From a virus, in the UHGV virus genome UHGV-0108392: DNA of 26,514 nucleotides. One strand, written 5' to 3'. The translations under genes were made by a program, and so were the position numbers. Below, piece by piece: positions 4,483 through 25,834 of this stretch. Position 1 is the stretch's first letter; each line of letters starts with the position of its first letter. The notes beneath the pieces were generated by a model. That model did not search any database, was not told the origin of the DNA, and saw only the letters and a program-made list of their open reading frames with translations.

Positions 4483-4573
4483 GTTACCTCGGTCTGTTAC
4501 CGTTGAGGTAATAATTATGCGTATTTGGTTTGATGTCAATAGATATGAGTTAAGAAAATTACCTATTAGGTAA
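4483..4573 (-). promoter_or_regulatory. Leftward early promoter region (pL-like) with flanking operator palindromes
   Basis: Minus strand carries a perfect TTGACA -35 followed by an AT-rich -10 region (CATAATTAT). It is flanked by the perfect palindrome TTACCTATTAGGTAA (4559-4573) and by inverted arms TTACCTC...GAGGTAA (4483-4510) overlapping the RBS of the first ORF. Confidence 0.45.
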
Positions 4574-4630: not shown

Positions 4631-5215
4631 TTATTGTTTGTTTTTTTCGTTCTGGTTGATGACAAATTCAATGTAACTTTCGATCTTTGCTTTCTCGGTT
4701 TCGGGTAACAATGCGTAGCGCGAGCGGTCATAGTTGATGGTCGCAGGGTCGTGCGGGTGAATCAGTAATTCATAGCCGTGACGCCCGAATGCGGATGCAA
4801 CATTCTCCAGGGTGGAAATGGAAACGCTGACCTCATTGTTTAACAGGCGGCTGATTGTCACCTGGGCGACGCCGGATGCGCGGTGAAGTTTTCCCTGAGT
4901 TGAAAGGTCGCGGCTTTCGCTCATCCAGCGTTCCAGGTTGTGAGCCGCCAGCTGACCAATGTCGCTTGGGCCGACAGGCTGAAAACCTTCCTGAGAAAGC
5001 GAGCGATCGATATCAAGCCAGTTACGTGGTTTATTGGCGGCAGCTTCAATTTTTCGCGCAACCTGGTCGCCGATAACCTTCTTGCCAAGAGCCCAGCGGT
5101 TTACCAGATTTGCCTGAGTTCCAAGTTTTTCTGCCATCCGCGTCTGAACACCATTGAATTCACGGTCGATCAAGTCGTTGAGATTTTGCCTGCGGACGTC
5201 CTGGATACTTTTCAT
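4631..5215 (-). CDS. Prophage repressor, two HTH-like segments (XRE/CI type), no S24 peptidase domain
   Basis: N-terminal segment (QTRMAEKLGTQANLVNRWALGKKVIGDQVARKIEAAANKPRNWLD) matches the CI-repressor HTH pattern; a second HTH-like segment lies in the C-terminal half. Divergent from a cro-like gene across an operator-rich intergenic region. Confidence 0.6.
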   Translation of the reverse strand: MKSIQDVRRQNLNDLIDREFNGVQTRMAEKLGTQANLVNRWALGKKVIGDQVARKIEAAANKPRNWLDIDRSLSQEGFQPVGPSDIGQLAAHNLERWMSESRDLSTQGKLHRASGVAQVTISRLLNNEVSVSISTLENVASAFGRHGYELLIHPHDPATINYDRSRYALLPETEKAKIESYIEFVINQNEKNKQ

Positions 5216-5369
5216 TTTCTGGAAAATCGCCTCATATATGAATCAGTAGATGATTCAATTTAAAGCAATATTACCCAACAGGTAAATGCACCTCATGGGT
5301 AACTATCCTTGATTTTTGTTACCTTATGGGTGAATATTTATTATCTGAAATAAATATCAGGCAATAGCT
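5216..5369. promoter_or_regulatory. Divergent promoter/operator switch region between repressor and cro-like gene
   Basis: Three operator-like sites related to TTACCT-N3-AGGTAA at 5271-5285, 5288-5302 and 5319-5333. A rightward promoter candidate (TTGATT at 5309-5314, -10 near 5332-5338) has the third operator inside its spacer. Confidence 0.55.
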
Positions 5370-5966: not shown

Positions 5967-6782
5967 ATGAGCAGACATGCAACAGATTGGGCCTGGGAGA
6001 CAGATCCAGGTAGCTCATCATTAAAGCTCATACTGCTCTCGATGGCTGACAGAGCCGATGAATATAACCTCTGCTACCCCAGCATAGAACGCCTCGTTAA
6101 AGACACTTGCCTGAATAAAAAAACCGTGCAGGCCGGGCTTATATCGCTCATGAAAATGGGGCTTATTTCAGATACCGGAGAGAGAAAGGGAGCGACAAAA
6201 AGAGTGCGGGTTTTCTCTCTTAATATAACCAAAAACGGGAACATTAAAGGCAACCGGGAAGGGGGTAATGAACCCGAAAACGGTAATTTTACCGAAAACG
6301 GGAATATACCCAAAAACGGGATGTTGAATGATCCCAAAAACGGGATGTTGAATGATCCCAAAAACGGGATCCAGAACCAGTCATATAACCAGTCATTTAA
6401 CCAAGAGAGGGAGAGCAGGACAAAAAACGGGGATTCTGTGTCTCATGACCCCGGCGCAAACAACGCCGTGATGAATAACTTTGTTCCTCCTGGTGGGCCA
6501 GGGCAATTAGGCAAATTTGTCATGCATGAACAATGGCAACCATCAGATGACTTTCTTCGGAAAAGCTCATTGCAGGGGATCTACCTGGACAGTCTGCCAA
6601 CGGCACAGGAACTTGCAGAGTTCAGAATTTACTGGATGGCTGAGGGTAAGGCATACCATCAGGCACAGTGGGAGCAGAAGCTGGCAAGGAGGCTGCAGAT
6701 TAGCAGACAGAAGCAATCAACATTACCTGATAACAACGTTCCGCACTGGAACAGCCCTGAAGCATGGGAGGATTTCTTGTGA
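5967..6782 (+). CDS. Replication initiator (O-like; N-terminal HTH, C-terminal DnaT-like region) containing the origin iterons
   Basis: N-terminus (DWAWETD...LKLILLSMADRADEYNLCYPSIERLVKDTCLNKKTVQAGLISLMKMGLI) fits phage replication-initiator HTH proteins. A central repetitive linker is encoded by the iterons. Immediately upstream of the P-like gene. Confidence 0.7.
   Translation: MSRHATDWAWETDPGSSSLKLILLSMADRADEYNLCYPSIERLVKDTCLNKKTVQAGLISLMKMGLISDTGERKGATKRVRVFSLNITKNGNIKGNREGGNEPENGNFTENGNIPKNGMLNDPKNGMLNDPKNGIQNQSYNQSFNQERESRTKNGDSVSHDPGANNAVMNNFVPPGGPGQLGKFVMHEQWQPSDDFLRKSSLQGIYLDSLPTAQELAEFRIYWMAEGKAYHQAQWEQKLARRLQISRQKQSTLPDNNVPHWNSPEAWEDFL
6229..6434 (+). repeat. Iteron array (putative origin of replication) inside the initiator gene
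   Basis: Eight or more direct copies of CC(A/C/G)AAAACGG(G), including two perfect tandem 24-mers CCCAAAAACGGGATGTTGAATGAT (6309-6332 and 6333-6356); these encode the repeated P(K/E)NG peptide. Confidence 0.65.
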
Positions 6783-11446: not shown

Positions 11447-11520
11447 ATACTGCCGCCAACTATGGCGGCTTTATTTTGCATGGTACTATTACCACAACGG
11501 TAACTATTACCAAGGTGGTT

Positions 11521-12117
11521 ATGATGCCTGCTGAACCTAAAACCTATAAACGCAAATCAACGCAATTTAAGCCACTAACAGCAATGCAGGAGGCTTATTG
11601 CCAGTCATACATCAAAACGCCTGAAAACCAGACTCAGGCAGCGATTAACGCAGGATTCTCCCCAAATACAGCGGCAGTTAAAGCCAGTGTCATGATGCGC
11701 GATGAACGCATTCAAAAACGGATTGCCGAGTTGATGGAGGAGCGCAACAAACGAATGCGCGTCAGTGCTGATTACGTTCTCATGCGCCTGGTGGAGATCG
11801 ACCAGATGGACGTGATCGACATCCTCAACGACGATGGGAGCCTTAAACCAATCCGTGAGTGGCCGAAAATCTGGCGCACTACGCTTAGTGGCTTTGATCT
11901 GTCATCGACCATCATGAACATGAACGAGGATTCGATAGAGACAATCCTCAAAAAAATTAAATGGCCTGACAAGGTGAAGAACCTTGAGCTGATTGGTAAG
12001 CATGTTGATGTCAACGCGTTCAAAGAACGTCTGGATGTTAATGTGAATGTGACAATTGCTGATCGCATAGCAGCAGCCAGGAAGCGACTCAAAGAACGTC
12101 AGGATGGTAATCAGTGA
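11521..12117 (+). CDS. Terminase small subunit
   Basis: Immediately upstream of, and overlapping (GTGA), the large terminase gene; N-terminal region (QEAYCQSYIKTPENQTQAAINAGFSPNTAAVKASVMMRDERIQKRI) resembles terminase small-subunit HTH domains. The true start is probably ATG 11521 (AAGGTGG RBS) rather than the track's 11443. Confidence 0.6.
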   Translation: MMPAEPKTYKRKSTQFKPLTAMQEAYCQSYIKTPENQTQAAINAGFSPNTAAVKASVMMRDERIQKRIAELMEERNKRMRVSADYVLMRLVEIDQMDVIDILNDDGSLKPIREWPKIWRTTLSGFDLSSTIMNMNEDSIETILKKIKWPDKVKNLELIGKHVDVNAFKERLDVNVNVTIADRIAAARKRLKERQDGNQ

Positions 12118-13589
12118 CAGATACAGCGTTATCTCCTGAAGAGCAGTTGATCGAGGATATTGCAGGGTTCACTCACGATCCGCTTGGTTATGCCCTCTAT
12201 GCGTTCCCGTGGGGGGAAGAGGGGACTGAACTGGCACATGCCACCGGTCCACGTCAGTGGCAGGCCGATGCGTTCCGAGAGATACGTGATCACCTGCAGA
12301 ATCCAGAGACGCGCTATCAGCCGCTTATGCTGGCACGCGCTTCTGGTCACGGTATTGGTAAATCCGCATTCATCTCAATGCTGATCAACTGGGGCATGTC
12401 CACTTGCGAGGATTGTAAGGTCGTGGTGACCGCCAACACCGACAACCAGCTACGAACGAAGACTTGGCCGGAAATTATCAAGTGGTCGAACCTTGCTATC
12501 ACGAAAGACTGGTTTACCTGTACCGCTACCGCGATGTACAGCAATGATCCTGGGCACGACAAGCGGTGGCGAGCTGACGCAATCCCCTGGTCTGAGCACA
12601 ACACTGAGGCATTCGCCGGACTACACAACGAGCGCAAACGCATCATCGTGGTATTCGATGAAGCGTCGAACATTGCGGATCTGGTGTGGGAAGTTGCCGA
12701 GGGTGCGCTAACGGACGAAGACACTGAGATTATCTGGGTGGCGTTCGGAAACCCGACGCGTAATACCGGACGTTTCCGCGAATGTTTCCGCAAATATAAA
12801 CACCGCTGGAAAACTGCGCAGATTGACAGCCGGACGGTGGAAGGCACTAACAAACAGCAGTTGCAGAAATGGGTTGATGACTACGGGGAAGACAGCGACT
12901 TCGTTAAAATCCGTGTGCGCGGCATATTCCCGGATGCATCTGAATTGCAGTTTATCCCTACCGGACTTACTGACGAGGCAATGAAACGGGTGGTCACCGC
13001 TGCGCAGGTTGCACATGCTCCGGTGATAATCGGCGTTGACCCGGCATACTCAGGCGTTGATGATGCGGTGATATACCTGCGGCAGGGGCTGCACAGTAAG
13101 GTGCTGTGGACCGGCAACAAGACCACTGACGATCTGATTATGGCAAAGCGTATCGCTGACTTTGAAGACCAGTATCAGGCTGACGCGGTGTTCATCGACT
13201 TCGGTTACGGAACTGGTCTGAAGTCAATCGGTGACGGCTGGGGTCGTACATGGCAACTTGTTCCGTTCGGTGGCGCGTCTACTGACCCGCAGATGCTCAA
13301 TAAGCGCGGGGAGATGTTCAACTCATGCAAGACGTGGCTGAGGCTGGGCGGCATGCTTGATGACCAGGAAACAGCGGACGACCTGTCGGCGGCAGAGTAC
13401 AAAGTTCGAGTGGACGGTAAAATCGTTATCGAACCGAAGGAAGATATCAAGGAGCGGCTTGGGCGTTCTCCTGGTAAAGGCGATGCGCTACTGCTGACGT
13501 TTGCGTTCCCTGTGTCGAAGCGTCTGCGAATTCCCGGGCAGCAGAACCAGCAAGGCAAGGCCATCACAGATTACGATCCATATGCTTAA
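12114..13589 (+). CDS. Terminase large subunit
   Basis: Walker A-like ARASGHGIGKS, Walker B-like VVFDEASN, C-terminal nuclease-type region; 491 aa. Confidence 0.85.
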   Translation: MTDTALSPEEQLIEDIAGFTHDPLGYALYAFPWGEEGTELAHATGPRQWQADAFREIRDHLQNPETRYQPLMLARASGHGIGKSAFISMLINWGMSTCEDCKVVVTANTDNQLRTKTWPEIIKWSNLAITKDWFTCTATAMYSNDPGHDKRWRADAIPWSEHNTEAFAGLHNERKRIIVVFDEASNIADLVWEVAEGALTDEDTEIIWVAFGNPTRNTGRFRECFRKYKHRWKTAQIDSRTVEGTNKQQLQKWVDDYGEDSDFVKIRVRGIFPDASELQFIPTGLTDEAMKRVVTAAQVAHAPVIIGVDPAYSGVDDAVIYLRQGLHSKVLWTGNKTTDDLIMAKRIADFEDQYQADAVFIDFGYGTGLKSIGDGWGRTWQLVPFGGASTDPQMLNKRGEMFNSCKTWLRLGGMLDDQETADDLSAAEYKVRVDGKIVIEPKEDIKERLGRSPGKGDALLLTFAFPVSKRLRIPGQQNQQGKAITDYDPYA

Positions 13590-13639
13590 TCCGCTGGTGG
13601 GGATAATGTCGTTGATATCCTCTGATGAGGATAAAACAA

Positions 13640-13659
13640 AGCCAGCTCATCGGCTGGCT
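13640..13659. terminator. Putative bidirectional terminator hairpin between large terminase and the convergent moron gene
   Basis: AGCCAGC-TCATCG-GCTGGCT hairpin with A/T-rich flanks on both sides. Confidence 0.4.
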
Positions 13660-13679
13660 GTTTGTGACATGTCACGGTG

Positions 13680-14099
13680 TTACTTAATGGCATTAAATCC
13701 AGCGTTGATGGCTTCCGCAATATTGATGGCACTTGTTTTATCGAAGTGCCCATTCTGAATAAGCGCCGCATGCAGGCATTGTAACTTCATGTTGTATAAG
13801 TGTTCGCTCATGTAATCATGATCACTTTTTGCTTTAGCGTAAACAGCGCGAGAAATATCAAACATATCGCCTTTTTCCATTTCAGAACGTTGTGCTGTTA
13901 TCCAGTCATGGAACGTAACGCTAGTACCATGGTCTTCGCTAAGAGTTAACCCGGCCAGTCCCTCACTCTGAATTACTTCGTAATGCATTTCATTACCAGC
14001 AAAAACGCCATAAAAAACGCAGTCTTCAGCCTGAACGATACGAGAATATTTTAATGGCCATTCATTTAGATACTTAGCCAACATATCAATTGTCTTCAT
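13680..14099 (-). CDS. Hypothetical protein (139 aa), opposite-strand moron gene downstream of the tRNA
   Basis: Good RBS (AAGGTGAG), opposite orientation to the flanking packaging and structural genes, no recognisable domain. Confidence 0.5.
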   Translation of the reverse strand: MKTIDMLAKYLNEWPLKYSRIVQAEDCVFYGVFAGNEMHYEVIQSEGLAGLTLSEDHGTSVTFHDWITAQRSEMEKGDMFDISRAVYAKAKSDHDYMSEHLYNMKLQCLHAALIQNGHFDKTSAINIAEAINAGFNAIK

Positions 14100-14298
14100 A
14101 ATCTCACCTTAAAAAAATGCCCGGACGAACCGGGCGAACTGGAAGCAATGAGTTCTGCCTTCCGTGGCTGTACTGGTTTACAGCATGAAGTCATCGCAAT
14201 GGCGTCCTGCTGTAAAAAGGGCGGTGATAGTCCTTCAAGGGAAACCATCACCGCCAAGCACCTGGAACTTCTGGCATCACGGTCCTTAGGCGTGATTC

Positions 14299-14375
14299 TG
14301 GCGTGGCATGCAGGATTCGAACCTGCGACCAACCGCTTAGAAGGCGGTTGCTCTGTCCAACTGAGCTAATGCCAC
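14299..14375 (-). tRNA. tRNA-Arg (anticodon UCU), phage-encoded, CCA encoded
   Basis: Reverse complement folds by hand as a 77-nt cloverleaf: acceptor GTGGCAT/ATGCCAC, D-stem GCTC/GAGC, anticodon stem ACCGC/GCGGT with loop CTTCTAA, T-stem GCAGG/CCTGC with loop TTCGAAT, then G-CCA. Stem sequences differ from E. coli argU as recalled. Confidence 0.9.
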
Positions 14376-14697
14376 AACGCTGAGAGCACTTAGCCTGTTA
14401 AGGCGCCACACTTTGTCGCGGCTCCATAAATGCTCTCATCGTTGTACCCTCGTCTCTTCCGAGGCGTCACACCGAATCGCCGGGATGGTGAATCCCCGTG
14501 CGCGGAATAAAACCGCTCGACTTGCACATTCCGGCTACCTGGTTCGTTTGCCCGAGCAAGGGAGGGTGCCCCTTAAACGTATCCAGACCGCTATCGGCGC
14601 ATGTGCCATACGCCGTACTGCTCAAAATAAAAGCTCACTCCACCTGTTCAATTTAACGACAAGCCAGTCATGTTAGTAACCGGAATGAACTCTTTGG

Positions 14698-14712
14698 TTA
14701 CCTCAAAGGTAA
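14698..14712. promoter_or_regulatory. Perfect operator palindrome TTACCTCAAAGGTAA upstream of the structural-gene module
   Basis: Same 15-bp palindrome as at the early promoters; a perfect TTGACA lies on the minus strand at 14734-14729 next to it. Confidence 0.4.
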
Positions 14713-14802
14713 TAATTCGCGCATTAAATGTCAACTGCCTACGATAAATAAATCATATGTGGTTAAATTGGTAATAATTTAATTGCGTACGGAGTCATTG
14801 AT

Positions 14803-15009
14803 ATGTGCATGGGTAGCTCACCATCAGTGCCTGCAACACCAGAAGTTCAGGCAGCACCACAGGAGCAGGATGCCGCCGTTGTTGATGCCCGCGACGAAGA
14901 AACTCGTCGCCGTCGCGCTGCTGCTAGTCGTAGTTCTACGCTGCTTACCGGTTCTCAGGGCGACACATCAACCGCTAAGACCAGCGGTAAAACGCTGCTT
15001 GGTCAGTAA
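14803..15009 (+). CDS. Hypothetical small Ala/Arg-rich protein preceding the portal gene
   Basis: ATG with a GGAG RBS; its initiation region CGGAGTCATTGA-ATG is near-identical to that of the portal gene. Confidence 0.4.
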   Translation: MCMGSSPSVPATPEVQAAPQEQDAAVVDARDEETRRRRAAASRSSTLLTGSQGDTSTAKTSGKTLLGQ

Positions 15010-15023
15010 CCGGAGTCATTGAA

Positions 15024-16703
15024 ATGGCGGAAACAACTAAAGAGCGATTGAACAAACAGTTCGCACAACTTGAAAGCGAGCGTCAGTCGTTCGAGCCGCA
15101 CTGGCGCGAGTTGAGTGATTACATCAACCCACGTGGTTCCCGCTTTCTGACTTCTGAGGTCAACCGTAACGATCGACGCAATACACGCATTATTGATTCG
15201 ACCGGGACTATGGCGGCGCGCACTCTCGCCAGCGGCATGATGTCAGGCATCACAAGCCCCGCGCGTCCGTGGTTTCGCCTGGCTACGCCAGATCCTGAAA
15301 TGATGGATTATGGCCCTGTTAAGTTGTGGCTTGAGGCGGTGCAGAACCGCATGAACGATATGTTCAATAAGTCGAATCTCTACCAGTCTCTTCCGCAGTT
15401 ATACGGAAGCCTCGGCACATACAGCACCGGTGCAATGGCGGTACTGGAGGATGACGAGGACATCATTCGCACAATGCCATTCCCGATAGGCAGTTACTAC
15501 CTGGCTAACTCACCTCGTGGCAGTGTGGACACCTGTTTTCGCAAGTTCTCTATGACCGTTCGTCAGCTTGTTCAGGAGTTCGGGCTAAATAACGTCAGCG
15601 AATCCGTAAAAAGCATGTGGGAAAGCGGCACCTACGAGAAGTGGATTGAAGTGATGCATTCGGTTTACCCGAACATTGACCGCGATACATCGAAGCTGGA
15701 TAGCAAGAACAAGCCATTCAAATCGGTTTATTACGAGGTTGGCGGTGATAACGACAAGTTGTTGCGTGAGTCCGGATTCGATGAGTTTCCAATTATGGCT
15801 CCGCGCTGGGAAGTTAATGGCGAAGATGTTTATGGATCATCATGCCCGGGTATGCTGGCGCTTGGACCTGTTAAGGCATTGCAGCTTCTCCAGAAGCGCA
15901 AGTCGCAGTTGATTGATAAAGCCACCAATCCGCCGATGGTTGCTCCGACTTCCCTCAAGAATCAGCGCGCCTCCCTTCTTCCTGGCGACATCACGTATAT
16001 CGATCAGATTACTGGTCAGGATGGATTCAGGCCTGCTTATCTGGTTAACCCCAGTACAGCAGATTTGGTGGCAGACATTCAGGACACTCGTCAAATCATT
16101 AACAGCGCCTACTTTGTCGATCTGTTCATGATGTTGCAGAACATCAATACCCGCTCGATGCCTGTTGAAGCGGTGATCGAAATGAAAGAAGAAAAACTTC
16201 TGATGTTGGGGCCGGTTCTGGAGCGTCTGAACGACGAATGTCTTAATCCTCTCATTGACCGCGCTTTCTCGATGATGGTGCGTAAAAACATGCTGCCGCC
16301 ACCGCCTGACGCGATGGAAGGCATGCCCCTGAAGGTCGAATACATTTCCGTCATGGCTCAGGCGCAGAAGTCTATCGGCCTGTCCAGTCTGGCGTCCACG
16401 GTTAACTTCATTGGTCAACTTGCGCAAGCGAAACCAGAAGCTCTCGACAAACTCAACGTTGATCAGGCGATCGATGCATTCGCTGATATGTCCGGAGTGT
16501 CTCCAACCGTCATTGTTCCGCAGGAACAGGTTGAGCAGGCTCGCCAGCAACGGGCACAGCAGCAACAGCAGCAACAAATGATGGCGATGGGGATGGCGGC
16601 GGCACAGGGTGTCAAGACGCTAAGTGAAGCTAAAACTTCGGATCCGAGTGTGTTGTCAGCTATGGCGAATGCAGTTAGTGGTCAGGGTGGGCAATCACAA
16701 TGA
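15024..16703 (+). CDS. Portal / head-to-tail connector protein (T7 gp8-like)
   Basis: 559 aa; Gln-rich C-terminus (QQQQQQMMAMGMAAAQG) resembles the T7 gp8 C-terminus as recalled; positioned after terminase and before scaffold and capsid. Confidence 0.75.
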   Translation: MAETTKERLNKQFAQLESERQSFEPHWRELSDYINPRGSRFLTSEVNRNDRRNTRIIDSTGTMAARTLASGMMSGITSPARPWFRLATPDPEMMDYGPVKLWLEAVQNRMNDMFNKSNLYQSLPQLYGSLGTYSTGAMAVLEDDEDIIRTMPFPIGSYYLANSPRGSVDTCFRKFSMTVRQLVQEFGLNNVSESVKSMWESGTYEKWIEVMHSVYPNIDRDTSKLDSKNKPFKSVYYEVGGDNDKLLRESGFDEFPIMAPRWEVNGEDVYGSSCPGMLALGPVKALQLLQKRKSQLIDKATNPPMVAPTSLKNQRASLLPGDITYIDQITGQDGFRPAYLVNPSTADLVADIQDTRQIINSAYFVDLFMMLQNINTRSMPVEAVIEMKEEKLLMLGPVLERLNDECLNPLIDRAFSMMVRKNMLPPPPDAMEGMPLKVEYISVMAQAQKSIGLSSLASTVNFIGQLAQAKPEALDKLNVDQAIDAFADMSGVSPTVIVPQEQVEQARQQRAQQQQQQQMMAMGMAAAQGVKTLSEAKTSDPSVLSAMANAVSGQGGQSQ

Positions 16704-19904: not shown

Positions 19905-20509
19905 TGGCCTCTGTAGTAGAGATCTGTAATCGTGCGCTGTCCAATATTGGCAACAGCCGCAGCATTAACAGCCTGACGGAAGCCAGCAAGGAAGCGGGGG
20001 AATGTTCGCTGCATTTTGAGGCCTGTCGTGATGCTGTGCTTTCTGATTTTGACTGGAACTTTGCTACAAAACGCGTGGCGCTTGCAGATACGAGCAATCC
20101 ACCGCCTGACTGGGAATATGCGTACCAGTACCCTTCCGATTGTCTGCGCATTACTGAAATTATGCTTCCTGGTGTACGCAATCCAACAGCAGCAATGCGT
20201 GTTCAGTACGAAGTTGGTGCAGACACCAACGGAACAGGAAAATTGATCTACACAGACCAGCCGCAGGCATGGCTTAAGTATGTCTCTCGCGTTACAGATG
20301 TGAACATGTTTGATGCCATTTTTATGGAGGCGCTGGCCTGGCGTCTTGCGGCAGCTATTAACATGGCGCTGACTGGGAATGCAGACCTCGGTACGTTTGC
20401 CCTCAATATGTACAATCGCGTGATTCTTAGTGCTGGCTCGCATAGCCAGAATGAATCACAGGAACCACAGCCACCGGTTGATGAGTTTACCATTGCGAGG
20501 TTGTCCTGA
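19904..20509 (+). CDS. Tail tubular protein A-like (T7 gp11-like adaptor), tentative
   Basis: About 200 aa, same size class and position as T7 gp11; weak N-terminal pattern similarity (ALSNIGNSRSINSLTE versus T7 ILASIGEPPVSTLE as recalled). Confidence 0.45.
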   Translation: MASVVEICNRALSNIGNSRSINSLTEASKEAGECSLHFEACRDAVLSDFDWNFATKRVALADTSNPPPDWEYAYQYPSDCLRITEIMLPGVRNPTAAMRVQYEVGADTNGTGKLIYTDQPQAWLKYVSRVTDVNMFDAIFMEALAWRLAAAINMALTGNADLGTFALNMYNRVILSAGSHSQNESQEPQPPVDEFTIARLS

Positions 20510-22560
20510 TGGCTATCAGTTGGATCCAGCCCAGCTTTGCCGGTGGTGAGATTGGACCGTCGTTGTACGGTCGTATCGACATGGCGAAGTACCAGGTGGC
20601 ATTGCGCAAGTGCGATAACTTTATCGTGCGGCAGTATGGCGGCGTTGAGAATCGACCTGGTACGCGTTTTGTCGGTGCCGCCAAATACCCAAATCGGAAA
20701 TGCCGCCTGATCCCGTTCCAGTTCTCGACGGTTCAGACCTATGCTCTGGAGTTCGGGCACCAGTACATGCGCGTTATCAAAGATGGTGCGTTGGTGCTGA
20801 ACAGCAGCAATGTTATTTATGAAATTGCCACGCCATATACTGAAGCCGATCTGTTCCGAATTAAATTTACGCAAAGCGCCGACGTGCTTACGCTGGTTCA
20901 CCCGGCATACCCGCCGAAAGAGTTGCGCCGCTATGCGCATGACAACTGGCAACTGGTTGATGTGGTAACGAAGAACGGGCCATTTGAAGATATCAATATT
21001 GACGAGTCAGTGACGGTTTATGCCAGCGCCAGCACCGGGACAATTACGTTAACAGCAAGCGCCTCTATTTTTGGCGCGGAGCAGGTAGGCAAATTGTTCT
21101 ATCTGGAACAGCCTGCAGTGGATTCAGTGCCGGTATGGGAAACCAGTAAGAGTACGTCGATTGGCGATATTCGCCGTGCAGACAGTAACTACTATCGCGC
21201 CGTTACAGCAGGCAAAACAGGCACTTTGCGCCCTTCGCATACAGAAGGCACATCATGGGATGGCTGGGGCGGATCCGGTGATGATGATACTGGCATTGAG
21301 TGGGAATATCTGCACAGTGGTTTTGGCATTGCCCGTATCACTGCTGCAAATGGAACTACTGCAACTGCCGAGGTGATTTCCTATATCCCTTCGCAGGTCG
21401 TTGGCGAGGATAATGCCAGCTATAAATGGGCTAAATATGCCTGGAACAGTGTTAATGGTTATCCTGGCACTGTTGTTTATTATCAACAACGTCTTTACTT
21501 CGCCGCATCGACTGCGTTCCCTCAGACTATCTGGGCCAGCCGTACCGGGGATTATAAGGATTTTGGCAAAAGCAATCCTACGCAGGATGACGACAGAATT
21601 ATCTACACCTATGCCGGGCGTCAGGTTAATGAGATCCGCCACCTGATTGATGTCGGTTCGCTGGTGGCACTGACTTCCGGAGGTGAGTACGTCATCACCG
21701 GCGACCAGAACAAAGTGTTAACCCCATCATCATTTGCATTCAGCTCTCAGGGATCAAATGGCTCGAGCAATGTCCCACCAATTGCTGTGGCGAATATTGC
21801 TCTGTTCGTCCAGGAGAAAGGCAGCGTTGTCCGTGATCTGGCCTACTCATTCGATGTTGACGGCTATCAGGGGAACGACCTGACCATCCTTGCCAATCAT
21901 CTTTTTCAGAAGCACAGCATTGTTGACTGGTGCTTCTCGATTGTCCCTTACTCCAGCGCCTTCTGCATTCGTGATGACGGTAAATTACTGGTGATGACCT
22001 ATTTGCGTGATCAGCAGGTTTTTGCATGGGCACCACAGTCCAGTACCGGAAAATATGAAAGCACATGCAGTATCAGCGAAGGCAATGAAGATGCGGTGTA
22101 TTTCGTCGTTAACCGAACCGTTAACGGGCAAGCAGTGAGATACATCGAGAGACTGTCCAGCCGTTTATTTACCAGCGATGAAGACGCTTTCTTTGTTGAT
22201 TCTGGCCTTAGCTATGATGGAAGAAATACGTCTGACAGAACGATGATCATCACTGGTGGTTCTGGTGAATGGGATTACCGCGCGGAATATACAATCAGTG
22301 TTTCTGGTGGTGCGTACTTCACCAGTAGTGATGTCGGTGCGCAACTACAGTTCCCTTATGCCGGAACTGATCCTGATACTGGCGATGAAGTGTCAAAAGA
22401 ATTACGTTGCGACATTATTTCTGTAACCAGCAATACCGCTGTAGTGGTTCGTCCTAACAGGAACGTCCCGCCATCCCTCAGGAATGTGGCCACCACGAAC
22501 TGGCAGATGGCGCGCCGGGCATTTGGCGGCTTGTCTCATCTTGAAGGTCAGACCGTAAAC
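20509..22560 (+). CDS. Tail protein (tail tubular B / nozzle-like by synteny); phage-derived N-terminal ~684 codons of an ORF that runs in frame into foreign DNA
   Basis: Enterobacterial-type composition and codon usage up to about 22560; the same ORF (track 20509..24012) then continues in frame into lower-GC sequence, so the native 3' end is missing. Functional call is by gene order only. Confidence 0.45.
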
Positions 22561-22599
22561 ATGGATGAAGTCAATTTCTTTGCCAAGAGGATGAAAAGC

Positions 22600-24012
22600 A
22601 TGACGGAATATGAAAGAAAAGTTCTGTCAGCGTATGCTGAGGATTATGGTGTGGCTACCATGCAGGATTTAATCAATCTGACATTCAGCATGAAAGGTCT
22701 TTCATTGCTTACAGATTTTTCAGATGCCAGACAGGTCGGGGAACGTCTTTACTTGGATGAATTCTTGGGAATATCAGAAGAAGAAAAAGCGCAGACCAAC
22801 TTTATTGAGTTTGCGGAAAAAACCTTAAAGGAGAGCCGGGTGGAAGTCCTGCCCTATGGAGTTTTTGTAGAGCATGGCTTTGAAATGCAGGAAGTGTACA
22901 ATGGAAAAACATTTCCGTCTTTCGTTGCATCGGATGAGACTGTGGCAATTGTCGAGTTACAGAACAAAGCCGGAGATACAGAGTATCTGTACCTGCCAAC
23001 GGATATCAGTTCCATGAACAAGGTAAAGGAGCGGTTGCAGGTGCAGGATTATTGGGAGATGGAAGTAACCGGAATTGAAAACCTTCGTTTACCGGATATC
23101 CTTGTACCGATGCCGGAAAACATTGATTGTGTGGAAGCACTGACATTATTTAATGAGACATGTCAGGCGGTAAAACGTTTTGATGAAGTGCAGATGACGC
23201 AGCTTGCGATGGTGGTAGAATTTACCGGATTTAGTAGTTCTACTGAGGTGACAAGTATTGCAAGACTGCTTGGGGAATTTGAAGTGAATCCTTTCGTACA
23301 CAATGATGAAGAGTATGGAAAGTACATGGTGGAAGAGTCCGGGTTATTTGATGTGGATGAGTTATTGCTCCCTCATATTAATTATGCAGCCTTTGCAGCG
23401 GATAAGAGACAGGGAACACTTGTGCAAAGTGGTTATGTAGAAAATGGTTTTGTGGGAGCCACCAGAGAACTTTCAGAGTACCAGCAGTATAATGGAGAGT
23501 TTGCTGATCCGTTAGAAATTGATGAAGACTGCTATGAAACATTTAAACTTTATAGTCCGCTGACAGGAAATTTATTTGAAGGTGGCTGTGAGCGGGGAAA
23601 CTTATATCGTAGCGATCTGACACCGTATGCGGAGGAAATTGCAGAAACCATTGAAAATGAATATTGTGTCGGGGAAGAGCCAAGAGGTCTCATGCATTAC
23701 TTTGATAGAAGTCTGGTGGTGGCGGCGAAAGTAATGTCTGCATATCCCAAGGTAGAGATTGTGGATGGCGAAGTTTATGGTGTGCTGGAATGTAAAGTCA
23801 GTGAAGCATTAACAGAGCATGATATTGAAGTGTTAAAGGAATATTGGACCGGACAGATGAGTGACGGATGGGGTGAAGGCTTTGAACAGCATCCAATTTT
23901 AGTAGAGGACGGAGAAATCTATGTCAGTTTTTGGAACAGCGAGAATTTCTGGAATGTTATGACCGAGGAGGAACTGATGGGAGGACAGGTTCAGGGAATG
24001 GATATGTGCTAA
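22600..24012 (+). CDS. Hypothetical acidic protein, Firmicutes-type (about 470 aa if it starts at ATG 22600)
   Basis: AAGAGG RBS 9 nt before ATG 22600; Glu/Asp/Tyr/Phe-rich; GAA/GGA/AAG-heavy codon usage unlike the upstream phage genes. The true N-terminus may lie upstream of the junction. Confidence 0.4.
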   Translation: MTEYERKVLSAYAEDYGVATMQDLINLTFSMKGLSLLTDFSDARQVGERLYLDEFLGISEEEKAQTNFIEFAEKTLKESRVEVLPYGVFVEHGFEMQEVYNGKTFPSFVASDETVAIVELQNKAGDTEYLYLPTDISSMNKVKERLQVQDYWEMEVTGIENLRLPDILVPMPENIDCVEALTLFNETCQAVKRFDEVQMTQLAMVVEFTGFSSSTEVTSIARLLGEFEVNPFVHNDEEYGKYMVEESGLFDVDELLLPHINYAAFAADKRQGTLVQSGYVENGFVGATRELSEYQQYNGEFADPLEIDEDCYETFKLYSPLTGNLFEGGCERGNLYRSDLTPYAEEIAETIENEYCVGEEPRGLMHYFDRSLVVAAKVMSAYPKVEIVDGEVYGVLECKVSEALTEHDIEVLKEYWTGQMSDGWGEGFEQHPILVEDGEIYVSFWNSENFWNVMTEEELMGGQVQGMDMC

Positions 24013-24832: not shown

Positions 24833-25834
24833 TTGAATAGCATTATCAGTTGGGTAGGCGGTAAGAAGGCACTCCGTGACCTGATATACCTGAGAATGCC
24901 GGGGCACTATGACCGCTACATAGAAGTATTTGGCGGAGGCGGATGGGTTTTATTTGGAAAGCCGCCTGATAAATGTATGGAGGTTTACAATGATTTCAAT
25001 TCGAATCTTGCAAACCTCTTTTATTGTGTCAAGGAAAGACCGATGGCACTGCTTCGGGAATTGTCTTTCCTGCCGCTTAACTCCAGGGATGAGTTTGTGA
25101 CACTCAGGAAATTCCTTACGATGGAAGAATTCAAAAGTGAGCATCTGGCAGAGGAACTGGAGATAGCAACTCATTTTCTGAAAGAGCCGGAGGCAGCGGA
25201 AATTTGTGACATCCTTATGGAACGAGCAGTAGTCGGGGATGTGAAAAGGGCGGCGGCCTTTTATAAGATTATCCGCTACAGCTATGGAAGTGGCTGTACC
25301 TCTTATGGGTGCCAGCCATTTGACATAAGGAAGACCTTTACTATTCTCTGGGAGGCAAACCGGAGGTTAAAAGATACCGTGATTGAAAATAAAGATTTTG
25401 AGGCACTCATCCGTCAGTATGACAGACCGAATGCCTTTTTTTATTGCGATCCACCGTATTTTGAAACCGAAGGGCATTATGAAGTGGTGTTCCGTAAAGA
25501 AGACCATGTAAGACTTAGGGATACGCTGGCAGGCATCGAGGGAAAATTCATGGTCTCCTACAATGACTGTGAGTACATCAGGGAATTGTATCAGGACTTT
25601 CAGATTGAAGCGGTAACACGAATCAACAATCTAGCACAGCGCTATGATAACGGAAGTGAGTTTCCGGAGGTGCTGATTGCCAACTATGACATGGAAGAAA
25701 GAAGAAAGAGCCTGCCGATGCAGATGAATCTGTTTGAAATGTTTGATGAGCAGAAGACTTCTGTGTGGCATGGCAGTAGCAGGAAGGAGGACGAAGATGG
25801 TTCAGTTAGTCGAGATAACAGGAGTGCTGAATGA
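24833..25834 (+). CDS. Dam-type (D12 class) N6-adenine DNA methyltransferase
   Basis: N-terminal SWVGGKK motif and DPPY catalytic motif (FFYCDPPYFE); TTG start with AGGAGG RBS. Confidence 0.8.
   Translation: MNSIISWVGGKKALRDLIYLRMPGHYDRYIEVFGGGGWVLFGKPPDKCMEVYNDFNSNLANLFYCVKERPMALLRELSFLPLNSRDEFVTLRKFLTMEEFKSEHLAEELEIATHFLKEPEAAEICDILMERAVVGDVKRAAAFYKIIRYSYGSGCTSYGCQPFDIRKTFTILWEANRRLKDTVIENKDFEALIRQYDRPNAFFYCDPPYFETEGHYEVVFRKEDHVRLRDTLAGIEGKFMVSYNDCEYIRELYQDFQIEAVTRINNLAQRYDNGSEFPEVLIANYDMEERRKSLPMQMNLFEMFDEQKTSVWHGSSRKEDEDGSVSRDNRSAE

Follow-up and report, generated by a model that had tools for sequence, protein, structure and literature searches.

A widespread, unannotated structured RNA upstream of a tRNA-Arg gene and an exchangeable accessory gene in a phiV10-like phage

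The sequence analyzed here, a 26,514-nucleotide (nt) stretch of the virus genome UHGV-0108392 (the window), comes from a phiV10/epsilon15-like phage of the genus Uetakevirus. Between its genes for the large terminase (TerL) and the portal protein, both of which are on the plus strand, lies an opposite-strand insert carrying a tRNA-Arg(UCU) gene and an open reading frame (ORF) for an unknown protein of 139 amino acids (aa), as a first-pass annotation of the sequence had recognized. We found that the largest conserved element of this insert, which that annotation overlooked, is a structured non-coding RNA that fills about 325 nt upstream of the tRNA (positions 14376 to 14700, minus strand). The minus-strand stretch measures about 1.1 kb in total, and the approximately 425 bp separating the tRNA from a 68-aa ORF next to the portal gene are not spacer. 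The region is 92 to 98% identical to HEMP4, vB_EcoP_PAS61, phiV10, O157 typing phages 9 and 10, ZX5, and other members of Uetakevirus, and phiV10-like phages are already known to carry the tRNA-Arg and the orphan ORF as a matter of routine; the value of the present result lies in the RNA family at the head of the unit rather than in either of these genes. A promoter/operator, the approximately 325-nt RNA, the tRNA-Arg, two terminators (T1 and T2), a Shine-Dalgarno sequence, a swappable ORF, and a bidirectional terminator very probably make up a single leftward unit (Table 1).

Table 1. Elements of the leftward unit in order of predicted transcription, followed by neighboring and distant genes of the window
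Feature	Position	Strand	Basis and remarks
Candidate sigma-70 promoter, TTGACA-17-TACCTT	14734-14706 (TTGACA 14734-14729, TACCTT 14711-14706)	-	Read from sequence
Operator-like palindrome TTACCTCAAAGGTAA (TTACC-N5-GGTAA)	14698-14712	.	Covers -10 hexamer and predicted transcription start
5' hairpin A, three-way junction	14629-14694	-	Between predicted transcription start and core; same module type as 3' extension
RNA core (171 nt)	14445-14615	-	H1, H2, H5, H6, pseudoknot CACC:GGUG, and invariant GGUAGCCGGAAUGUGCAAG (14521-14539)
H1			CGGCGUAU-GGCAC-AUGCGCCG
H2			AGCGGUCYGG with CCRGGUAGCC; encloses variable hairpin H3
Single-stranded invariant segment, 19 nt			After H2, before variable hairpin H4
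H5			GGGA-UUCACCA-UCCC
Pseudoknot			CACC of H5 loop with downstream GGUG
H6			CCUCG-GAAGAGA-CGAGG
3' extension module	14376-14444	-	Closing stem CAAC-GAUGAGAGCA...UGCUCUC-AGC-GUUG round variable two-hairpin insert; last base abuts tRNA +1
tRNA-Arg(UCU), encoded CCA end	14299-14375	-	ARAGORN, Rfam; annotated tRNA-Arg in related records
Terminator T1	14212-14255 (hairpin 14220-14255)	-	14-bp stem, then CUUUUUAC; -23.8 kcal/mol
Terminator T2	14111-14135 (hairpin 14119-14135)	-	6-bp all-GC stem, then U7; -13.1 kcal/mol, z -3.2
Shine-Dalgarno AAGGTGAG of 139-aa ORF	14103-14110	-	Strong; read from sequence
139-aa orphan accessory ORF, phrog_4846	13680-14099	-	Variable N-terminal part, conserved C-terminal helical hairpin module
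Bidirectional intrinsic-terminator hairpin	13640-13659	.	Terminator scan; between TerL stop (13589) and ORF stop; conserved in phiV10
68-aa epsilon15 gp3 homologue	14803-15009	+	ORF list, phrog_831; annotated in phiV10 and epsilon15
TerL	12114-13589	+	ORF list; left flank of insert
Portal	15024-16703	+	PF12236; right flank of insert
TerS		+	PF03592
HTH_3 Cro/C1-type repressor gene	4631-5215	-	

Distant BLAST matches to positions 14376 to 14720 were found in very different phages, most of them with no annotated feature beneath the match. The RNA is present directly downstream of cI in cdtI, mEp460, and the Stx2c- and Stx2a-converting lambdoid phages; between trnI and ban in P1, P7, D6, SJ46, and RCS47; after the lysis genes in Klebsiella phage SopranoGao; and downstream of the helix-turn-helix repressor gene in a Stenotrophomonas phage. 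In these lambdoid, P1-type, SopranoGao, and Stenotrophomonas contexts the neighboring genes are always on the strand that matches the minus strand of the window, and sequence conservation of the RNA between the P1, lambdoid, and Uetakevirus phages is about 80%. The invariant 19-mer GGUAGCCGGAAUGUGCAAG occurs in at least 120 IMG/VR contigs, in 42 clusters at 90% identity among the matches listed. We also found the element in 1840 of 5426 complete E. coli genomes; 554 of the places found are on plasmids, where we assume the copies to be mostly P1-like. In the set of species representatives, genuine matches came from Enterobacteriaceae and Erwinia, while those in Bacteroides, Oscillospiraceae, Dysgonomonadaceae, and Azonexus were rejected as chance 18-mers within coding sequence.

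RefSeq leaves the element unannotated, and the annotation at its position was "none" in all 40 sampled rows. When the whole window was scanned against Rfam 15 at the gathering threshold, only the tRNA was returned; a scan of 13590 to 15030 at E<=10 gave weak chance matches only, with no riboswitch or ribozyme, and a scan of a tRNA-less leader from a relative (locus L163) gave no match. A full-text literature search for the invariant 15-mer in either orientation found no paper containing it, and the literature on put-like and prophage RNAs held nothing that matched, the Pas small RNA preprint being concerned with other RNAs. That these loci represent a widely distributed, covariation-supported, unannotated RNA family of enterobacterial temperate phages is a well-supported conclusion.

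The core of this RNA folds into four nested helices and a pseudoknot, with two variable hairpins, H3 and H4, in both of the alignments that we built (A2 and A4). In A4, pairing holds for 97.1% of cells, and changes on both sides were seen in 12 of the 27 pairs, with similar results for A2. None of 500 shuffles matched the observed pairing and covariation, and in a control in which pairing partners were slid out of register, pairing fell to 29 to 49% (A4; 28 to 51% over both alignments). The pseudoknot covaries between CACC:GGUG and AACC:GGUU in A4 rows of otherwise different sequence types, and the conserved G-U pairs fit the minus strand alone. Core lengths range from 145 to 177 nt with no 3-nt periodicity, and we rejected coding potential for 14376 to 14700 because its lengths do not keep to multiples of 3 and it is base pairs that are under constraint. 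A covariance model (R1) has one match in the window, 14615 to 14445 on the minus strand (135.9 bits, E 2e-41); in epsilon15 it detects a 32-bit deletion remnant, and in HK022 it has no match at E<=10 in the regions 25.5 to 30.5 kb and 32 to 38 kb. A possible second pseudoknot, pairing GCAC of the H1 loop with GUGC of the invariant segment, shows only single-base variants. Two other readings of parts of the core were rejected. The sequence GGCACATGTGCC is not maintained as a DNA palindrome, since the window breaks the palindrome yet keeps H1 pair 5:17, which covaries between G-C and A-U, and a T-box-like display of the codon AGA in the H6 loop (GAAGAGA) was set aside because the loop is identical beside tRNA-Ile2 in P1.

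Additional structured modules flank the core. A closing stem of the form CAAC-N-GAGAGCA...UGCUCUC-N-GUUG follows it in 88 of 119 unique loci, around unrelated inserts of 40 to 100 nt, and the corresponding 3' extension of the window folds at -31.6 kcal/mol (z -4.95). Hairpin A, on the other side of the core, folds at -22.6 kcal/mol (z -3.2) and contains a motif, GUCGUUAAAU...GGAGUG(A/C)GCU, that is common to extension modules elsewhere. At the end of the extension, GUUG is followed by UGG, and in the window and 29 further loci tRNA-Arg(UCU) begins with the four bases GUGG of this junction. In P1-type loci, tRNA-Ile2(CAU) ends 15 nt before H1. Adjacent tRNAs lie on the element's own strand in 46 of 46 cases. 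In P1 itself (locus L004, 2492 to 2668; 130.5 bits), the core starts 15 nt past the CCA of this tRNA and stops about 60 nt short of a mini-ORF of 14 codons, which overlaps the start codon of ban; NC_005856 annotates nothing at the core.

The 3' side of the element differs between groups of loci. In tRNA-less relatives, an acceptor-like helix (GUUGUGGUG...CACCACAAC) and a T-arm-like hairpin just before CACCA are found in the tRNA position and are followed by the same T1 and T2 (L160, 3700 to 3790; L161, 3720 to 3810; L163, 3580 to 3800; L006, 2390 to 2500, minus strand). ARAGORN does not call this helix, which could be a degenerate or specialized tRNA-like domain. The lambdoid loci L032, L045, L088, and L168 have no extension; a short hairpin is followed by a canonical boxA (UGCUCUUUAACAA or AGCUCUUUAAUAA) about 40 to 60 nt past the core, which in these loci thus comes before a site resembling nut or rrn. 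A subfamily from IMG/VR and Kosakonia (L013, L014, L037, L117, and L139) has CAGCCCAGACGAUAUCUGAGUGGCU and then GGGAGCCGGUGGAAUCCCGGC instead of H6, and loci L132, L134, L035, L036, L074, and L097 have a different conserved 3' module, GAAAUCAGCCAUUCACGCUAAGCAUC...GGACAGUGGCG. Several alternative 3' domains therefore exist within the RNA family.

The tRNA gene itself was accepted by both ARAGORN, which called no other tRNA across the whole window (anticodon TCT at position 35), and Rfam, in which it scored 73.3 bits against RF00005, for which the gathering score is 29. It is identical to E. coli K-12 argU at 64 of 77 positions (83%). The 13 differences are spread over both halves of the molecule, and 10 of them combine into five compensatory base pairs of the acceptor and anticodon stems, so the stems are indeed unlike those of host argU, as the first-pass annotation had stated. 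The phage group integrates at guaA and has its attP beside the integrase gene (PMC9782041). Because the differences from argU are compensatory and the attachment sites of the group are elsewhere, both an argU attachment-site remnant and a misassembly are excluded; the flanks of the gene are also phage sequence, and the proposal that the tRNA is phage-borne stands.

Across 28 ORFs of the window, AGA and AGG are used at 5.6 and 5.4 per 1000 codons, respectively, some two to four times as often as in E. coli on average. The two codons are concentrated in 5967 to 6782, 20509 to 24012, and 24833 to 25834, and a codon count found zero of them in the portal gene, the capsid-region genes, and the 139-aa ORF. 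Thus, the idea that the tRNA aids late-gene translation is only partly upheld: the codons are enriched as it predicts, yet they are clustered and the portal and capsid genes do without them, which leaves a supply of AGA decoding to a subset of genes as a plausible role. The tRNA-Arg gene is present in some relatives and missing in others, and it is dispensable in close relatives.

The 139-aa ORF is real and is preceded by a strong Shine-Dalgarno sequence, and its product belongs to PHROG 4846 (E 3e-88), a PHROG of unknown function. We found no match to it in Pfam, NCBIfam, PADLOC, or PDB profiles. An exhaustive hidden Markov model search of 1.8 billion sequences identified a family of 32 representatives at 50% identity, confined to Enterobacteriaceae. 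The AlphaFold2 model is weak (predicted local distance difference test score of 63.7) apart from a C-terminal helical hairpin, and a Foldseek search with it returned nothing but a homologue. There was no defense or exclusion signal in PADLOC, Pfam, NCBIfam, PDB, or Foldseek; the candidacy of this protein as an exclusion factor therefore gained no functional lead from homology and structure searches.

Comparison with phiV10 shows how the ORF sits in the unit. Homology to phiV10 breaks off at 14101 and returns at 13682, coinciding exactly with the two ends of the ORF, and T2, the Shine-Dalgarno sequence, and the downstream terminator are common to both phages despite the different ORF. The same slot holds a PF13876 (N4 gp49/Sf6 gp66) gene in phiV10 and epsilon15 and a phrog_4846 gene in the window, HEMP4, and PAS61, and all tested variants of the 139-aa protein occupy this Uetakevirus slot. 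The ORF is an accessory cargo gene in a swappable cassette. The C-terminal region of its product, about 50 aa (DYxxEHLYNMKLQCLHAALIQ...NIAEAINAGFDAIK), recurs in variants from Cronobacter and E. coli, where it is fused to an N-terminal domain that is unrelated. This module is mobile, occurring with at least two unrelated N-terminal domains (P0092, P0095-P0100, and P0103) and lying N-terminally in P0103, and variants of 201 aa bear an additional C-terminal domain. In Leclercia, Cronobacter, and Salmonella, every homologue of the ORF is preceded by the RNA (140 to 155 bits), and none has the tRNA. Since these same-cargo relatives keep the RNA without the tRNA, the RNA is the constant feature of the unit and the tRNA an optional passenger.

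Treating 13590 to 15023 as one insert, as had been done, is right for the minus-strand unit and not for the 68-aa gp3 homologue at its edge, which is a member of the plus-strand structural operon and lies outside the insert. This small protein starts with MCMGSSPS, has an Arg-rich center (RRRRAAASR), and is kept just upstream of the portal gene group-wide.

The proposed bidirectional terminator at the far end of the unit is confirmed and folds well on either strand, with energies of -13.0 and -14.3 kcal/mol (z -3.8 and -4.2) and U-runs on both sides. Simple co-transcription of the tRNA and the ORF, which the first-pass annotation assumed, is not assured, because T1 and T2 lie between them and a consensus scan found no promoter-like site in the interval. 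T2 is also present in relatives L160, L161, and L163, and its U-tract runs directly into the Shine-Dalgarno sequence of the ORF, while a hairpin homologous to T1 precedes the first ORF of cdtI-type lambdoid phages. Terminator-like hairpins separate the core from the first downstream ORF in all 30 Uetakevirus-type loci surveyed (at least two hairpins in 27 of the 30) and in 31 of 55 lambdoid loci. The T1 loop (14225 to 14245) and the loop of core hairpin H3 (14560 to 14580) share UUCCCUUGA(UGCU), and the 5' half of T1 (GGCGGU...) resembles that of H2. The epsilon15-type deletion joins exactly these T1/H3 repeats (L173; L005, 2447 to 2534), removing the tRNA and most of the core.

We also asked how transcription of the unit might be controlled. 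The arrangement of TTGACA-N17-TACCTT and operator recurs upstream of the RNA in other loci, and a promoter-like site within 200 nt upstream on the same strand was found in 62 of 120 unique contexts, compared with 0 of 120 in two controls; in this survey, H1 and the -10 hexamer are a median of 75 nt apart. The palindrome that overlaps the window's promoter candidate, TTACC-N5-GGTAA, has 10 copies in the window, where 0.35 are expected (positions 4497, 4559, 5271, 5319, 5656, 7602, 7664, 11489, 11507, and 14698). Those at 5271 and 5319 are in the divergent region adjoining the HTH_3 repressor gene; the copies at 11489 and 11507 lie just before terS, and others lie after a cro-like gene. The set appears to be the full operator complement of the phage, which suggests that the repressor directly controls several promoters, one of them in the packaging region. 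The epsilon15 record labels the equivalent site "repressor, lysogeny." Because the promoter is overlapped by a palindrome that is copied beside the repressor gene and labeled as a repressor site in epsilon15, the unit is probably silent in a lysogen, and control of the unit by the phage repressor is, on this sequence evidence, somewhat more probable than not.

The lambdoid loci have a comparable arrangement. In cdtI, the cI stop codon is followed by a terminator, a TTGACA-17-CATAAT promoter with an operator that matches oR, and the RNA about 45 nt past the transcription start, where other lambdoid phages have nutL or putL. As an operator of the oR type overlaps it directly after the cI terminator, this promoter is pL, and no ORF lies between pL and the terminator that follows the element. 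The element has the same placement in Stx2a_1447, in which no N gene is annotated, and in the Stenotrophomonas phage, and we found no N-like (arginine-rich) proteins among the first downstream ORFs. Given the window operator, the placement at pL in cdtI, and the promoter-like sites in 62 of the 120 contexts, the unit looks like an early, repressor-controlled transcript rather than a moron expressed from the prophage.

Our explanation for the locus as a whole, which we offer tentatively, is a single repressor-controlled leftward unit with an antiterminating leader RNA. Upon infection or induction, transcription would start at approximately 14699, and the core, once folded on the nascent transcript, would act on the elongating RNA polymerase in cis, as a processive antiterminator made of RNA alone with a function like that of HK022 put. 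T1 and T2 would then be passed, and the cargo ORF reached, by transcripts from this promoter only, and the 139-aa protein would be an early lytic-phase accessory factor. An RNase P cut at tRNA +1 would free the tRNA, which could then supplement AGA decoding in the AGA-enriched phage genes, and the same cut would set the 3' end of the leader RNA. The HK022 putL RNA acts without protein factors and does not need to be tethered to the transcript (PMC9378689), so cleavage by RNase P is compatible with a put-like activity. Antitermination is favored here because the position and design of the unit equal those of HK022 putL; a cis-acting processive antiterminator is a possible role for the core, though not a probable one. 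It is still more doubtful that the core represents a third class of RNA-only processive antiterminator, with no structural relationship to HK022 put or Bacillus EAR; a class of this kind would govern the cdtI/Stx2-type early-left operons, the Uetakevirus accessory slot, and P1 ban.

Several observations weigh against this explanation. The argument for antitermination is one of position and architecture, the RNA has no similarity to put, and there is one copy per phage, compared with putL and putR in HK022. No terminator follows the element in any of 11 P1-type loci or in 24 of 55 lambdoid loci; the P1 element comes after trnI, just before ban, and that of SopranoGao after the lysis genes. The canonical boxA (UGCUCUUUAACAA) after the core in some loci suggests that an ordinary Nus-dependent system is also present, and epsilon15 retains T2 and the cargo gene with most of the core deleted. 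At the promoter, the -10 hexamer TACCTT is weak, a stricter consensus scan did not list the site, and the palindrome is one that we infer to be a repressor operator. About equally likely is a stable RNA that is processed from the transcript and acts in trans, for example as a decoy or sponge or as the RNA component or target of a protein from host or phage. It would be made first on induction, with T1 as its terminator and the ORF expressed by leakage; RNase P, RNase III, and RNase E would excise it along with the adjoining tRNA, as for T4 RNAs C and D. The contacts with tRNAs would fix the ends of such an RNA, both where the extension meets tRNA-Arg +1 (the window and 29 loci) and where the P1 core follows the trnI CCA by 15 nt, and the long closing stems around variable inserts (z -4.95 in the window) resemble processing stems. 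The occurrence of the element at operon positions unrelated to one another (ban of P1, SopranoGao, pL leaders, and the Uetakevirus slot), the conservation of the core-to-T1 unit between lambdoid and Uetakevirus contexts, and an invariant 19-nt single-stranded segment in a compact pseudoknotted fold, which would suit a binding partner, point the same way. However, we found no partner gene that consistently accompanies the RNA, and a stable RNA leaves unexplained the promoterless ORFs behind its terminator.

The remaining explanations are less likely than antitermination or a stable RNA. A classical moron, in which the tRNA and a lysogenic-conversion or exclusion gene are co-transcribed from the prophage, was the model of the first-pass annotation, and it would fit an opposite-strand unit within a late operon that has its own promoter candidate and terminator, cargo that varies (PF13876 in phiV10 and epsilon15 and phrog_4846 here), and a tRNA whose presence varies among relatives. 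We consider it improbable, since its sole promoter candidate is overlapped by the operator palindrome, at the -10 hexamer and transcription start, and two terminators separate the tRNA from the ORF; moreover, the ORF has no PADLOC, fold, or family match, a ZX5 lysogen had no phenotype in the reported assays (PMC9782041), and the model ignores the conserved RNA. Equally improbable is a ligand-sensing riboswitch or self-cleaving ribozyme in early phage leaders. A multi-helix junction of about 150 nt with a pseudoknot and invariant unpaired nucleotides, located in a 5' leader and followed by terminators, has the look of one, and the H1 loop region GGCACAU could pair alternatively with the invariant AUGUGC, but the columns of that pairing are invariant and hence show no covariation, the terminators are 150 to 300 nt away across variable inserts with no conventional expression platform, the downstream genes are heterogeneous, and no Rfam riboswitch or ribozyme matched at E<=10. 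A passive leader, whose 5' structure shields early transcripts from RNase E and offers RNase III and RNase P sites, is also unlikely, if marginally less so. The nearness of the element to the transcript 5' end (the median of 75 nt from the -10 hexamer), its stable stems, and the label "RNaseIII, mRNA processing" on the neighboring stretch in the epsilon15 record are consistent with such a role, whereas the 19-nt invariant segment, the covarying pseudoknot, and the conservation of about 80% amount to far more constraint than protection needs.

Whichever role applies, an RNA family absent from Rfam 15 and RefSeq annotation occurs in textbook phages as well as phages of medical importance (P1, P7, and the Stx2- and cdt-converting phages) and in about a third of complete E. 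coli genomes, and it is located where repressor-controlled early transcripts begin. If the RNA modifies RNA polymerase, this would explain early-left expression in lambdoid phages that have no N gene, and the core would be a new antitermination part that can be moved between constructs. As a stable RNA acting in trans, it would instead be among the first products on induction in many pathogenic E. coli prophages.

The unit shares features with several known systems and differs from each of them. Like lambdoid morons, it is an opposite-strand unit in a late operon with its own promoter candidate and terminator and with cargo that varies between relatives, but its promoter bears a phage operator, so that it is probably off in a lysogen, and 0.6 to 0.9 kb of structured non-coding leader with terminators precedes its cargo. 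The tRNA is nothing new in itself: like other phage tRNA-Arg(UCU) genes (phiV10-group records, argN/argO of Stx phages, and the T4 cluster), it encodes a canonical cloverleaf with a UCU anticodon and CCA end, and it belongs to a temperate phage of enterobacteria in which AGA is used more often than in the host. What sets the window apart is that its tRNA sits embedded in a structured RNA, at the 3' end. Physical linkage of a phage-encoded structured RNA to tRNA genes is also seen for T4 RNAs C and D, GOLLD, ROOL, and the RNase P-processed C4 (P1/P7) and CI (P4) RNAs, and RNA ends may plausibly be set by tRNA-processing enzymes here as well. RNAs C and D are stable RNAs of the T4 tRNA cluster. 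The RNA described here differs from the tRNA-linked stable phage RNAs in matching none of those of their families that Rfam holds, and it is smaller than GOLLD and ROOL and confined to phages of Enterobacteriaceae. With lambda nut and rrn boxA it shares a leader location, and the 3' strand of the extension (UGCUCUC, UGCUCUUUCC, or UGCUCUUAUC) is boxA-like; a lambda-type nut site, with a single-stranded boxA (CGCUCUUA), boxB, and N, was nevertheless rejected, because the UGCUCUC of the window lies in a covarying stem and no N-like ORF is nearby. As for HK022 putL, the element of the lambdoid relatives shares its position directly downstream of a repressor-controlled pL and upstream of terminators, with no protein gene between, but this RNA comprises 154 nt (171 nt for the core in the window) in four nested helices and a pseudoknot, whereas put comprises about 74 nt in two stems.

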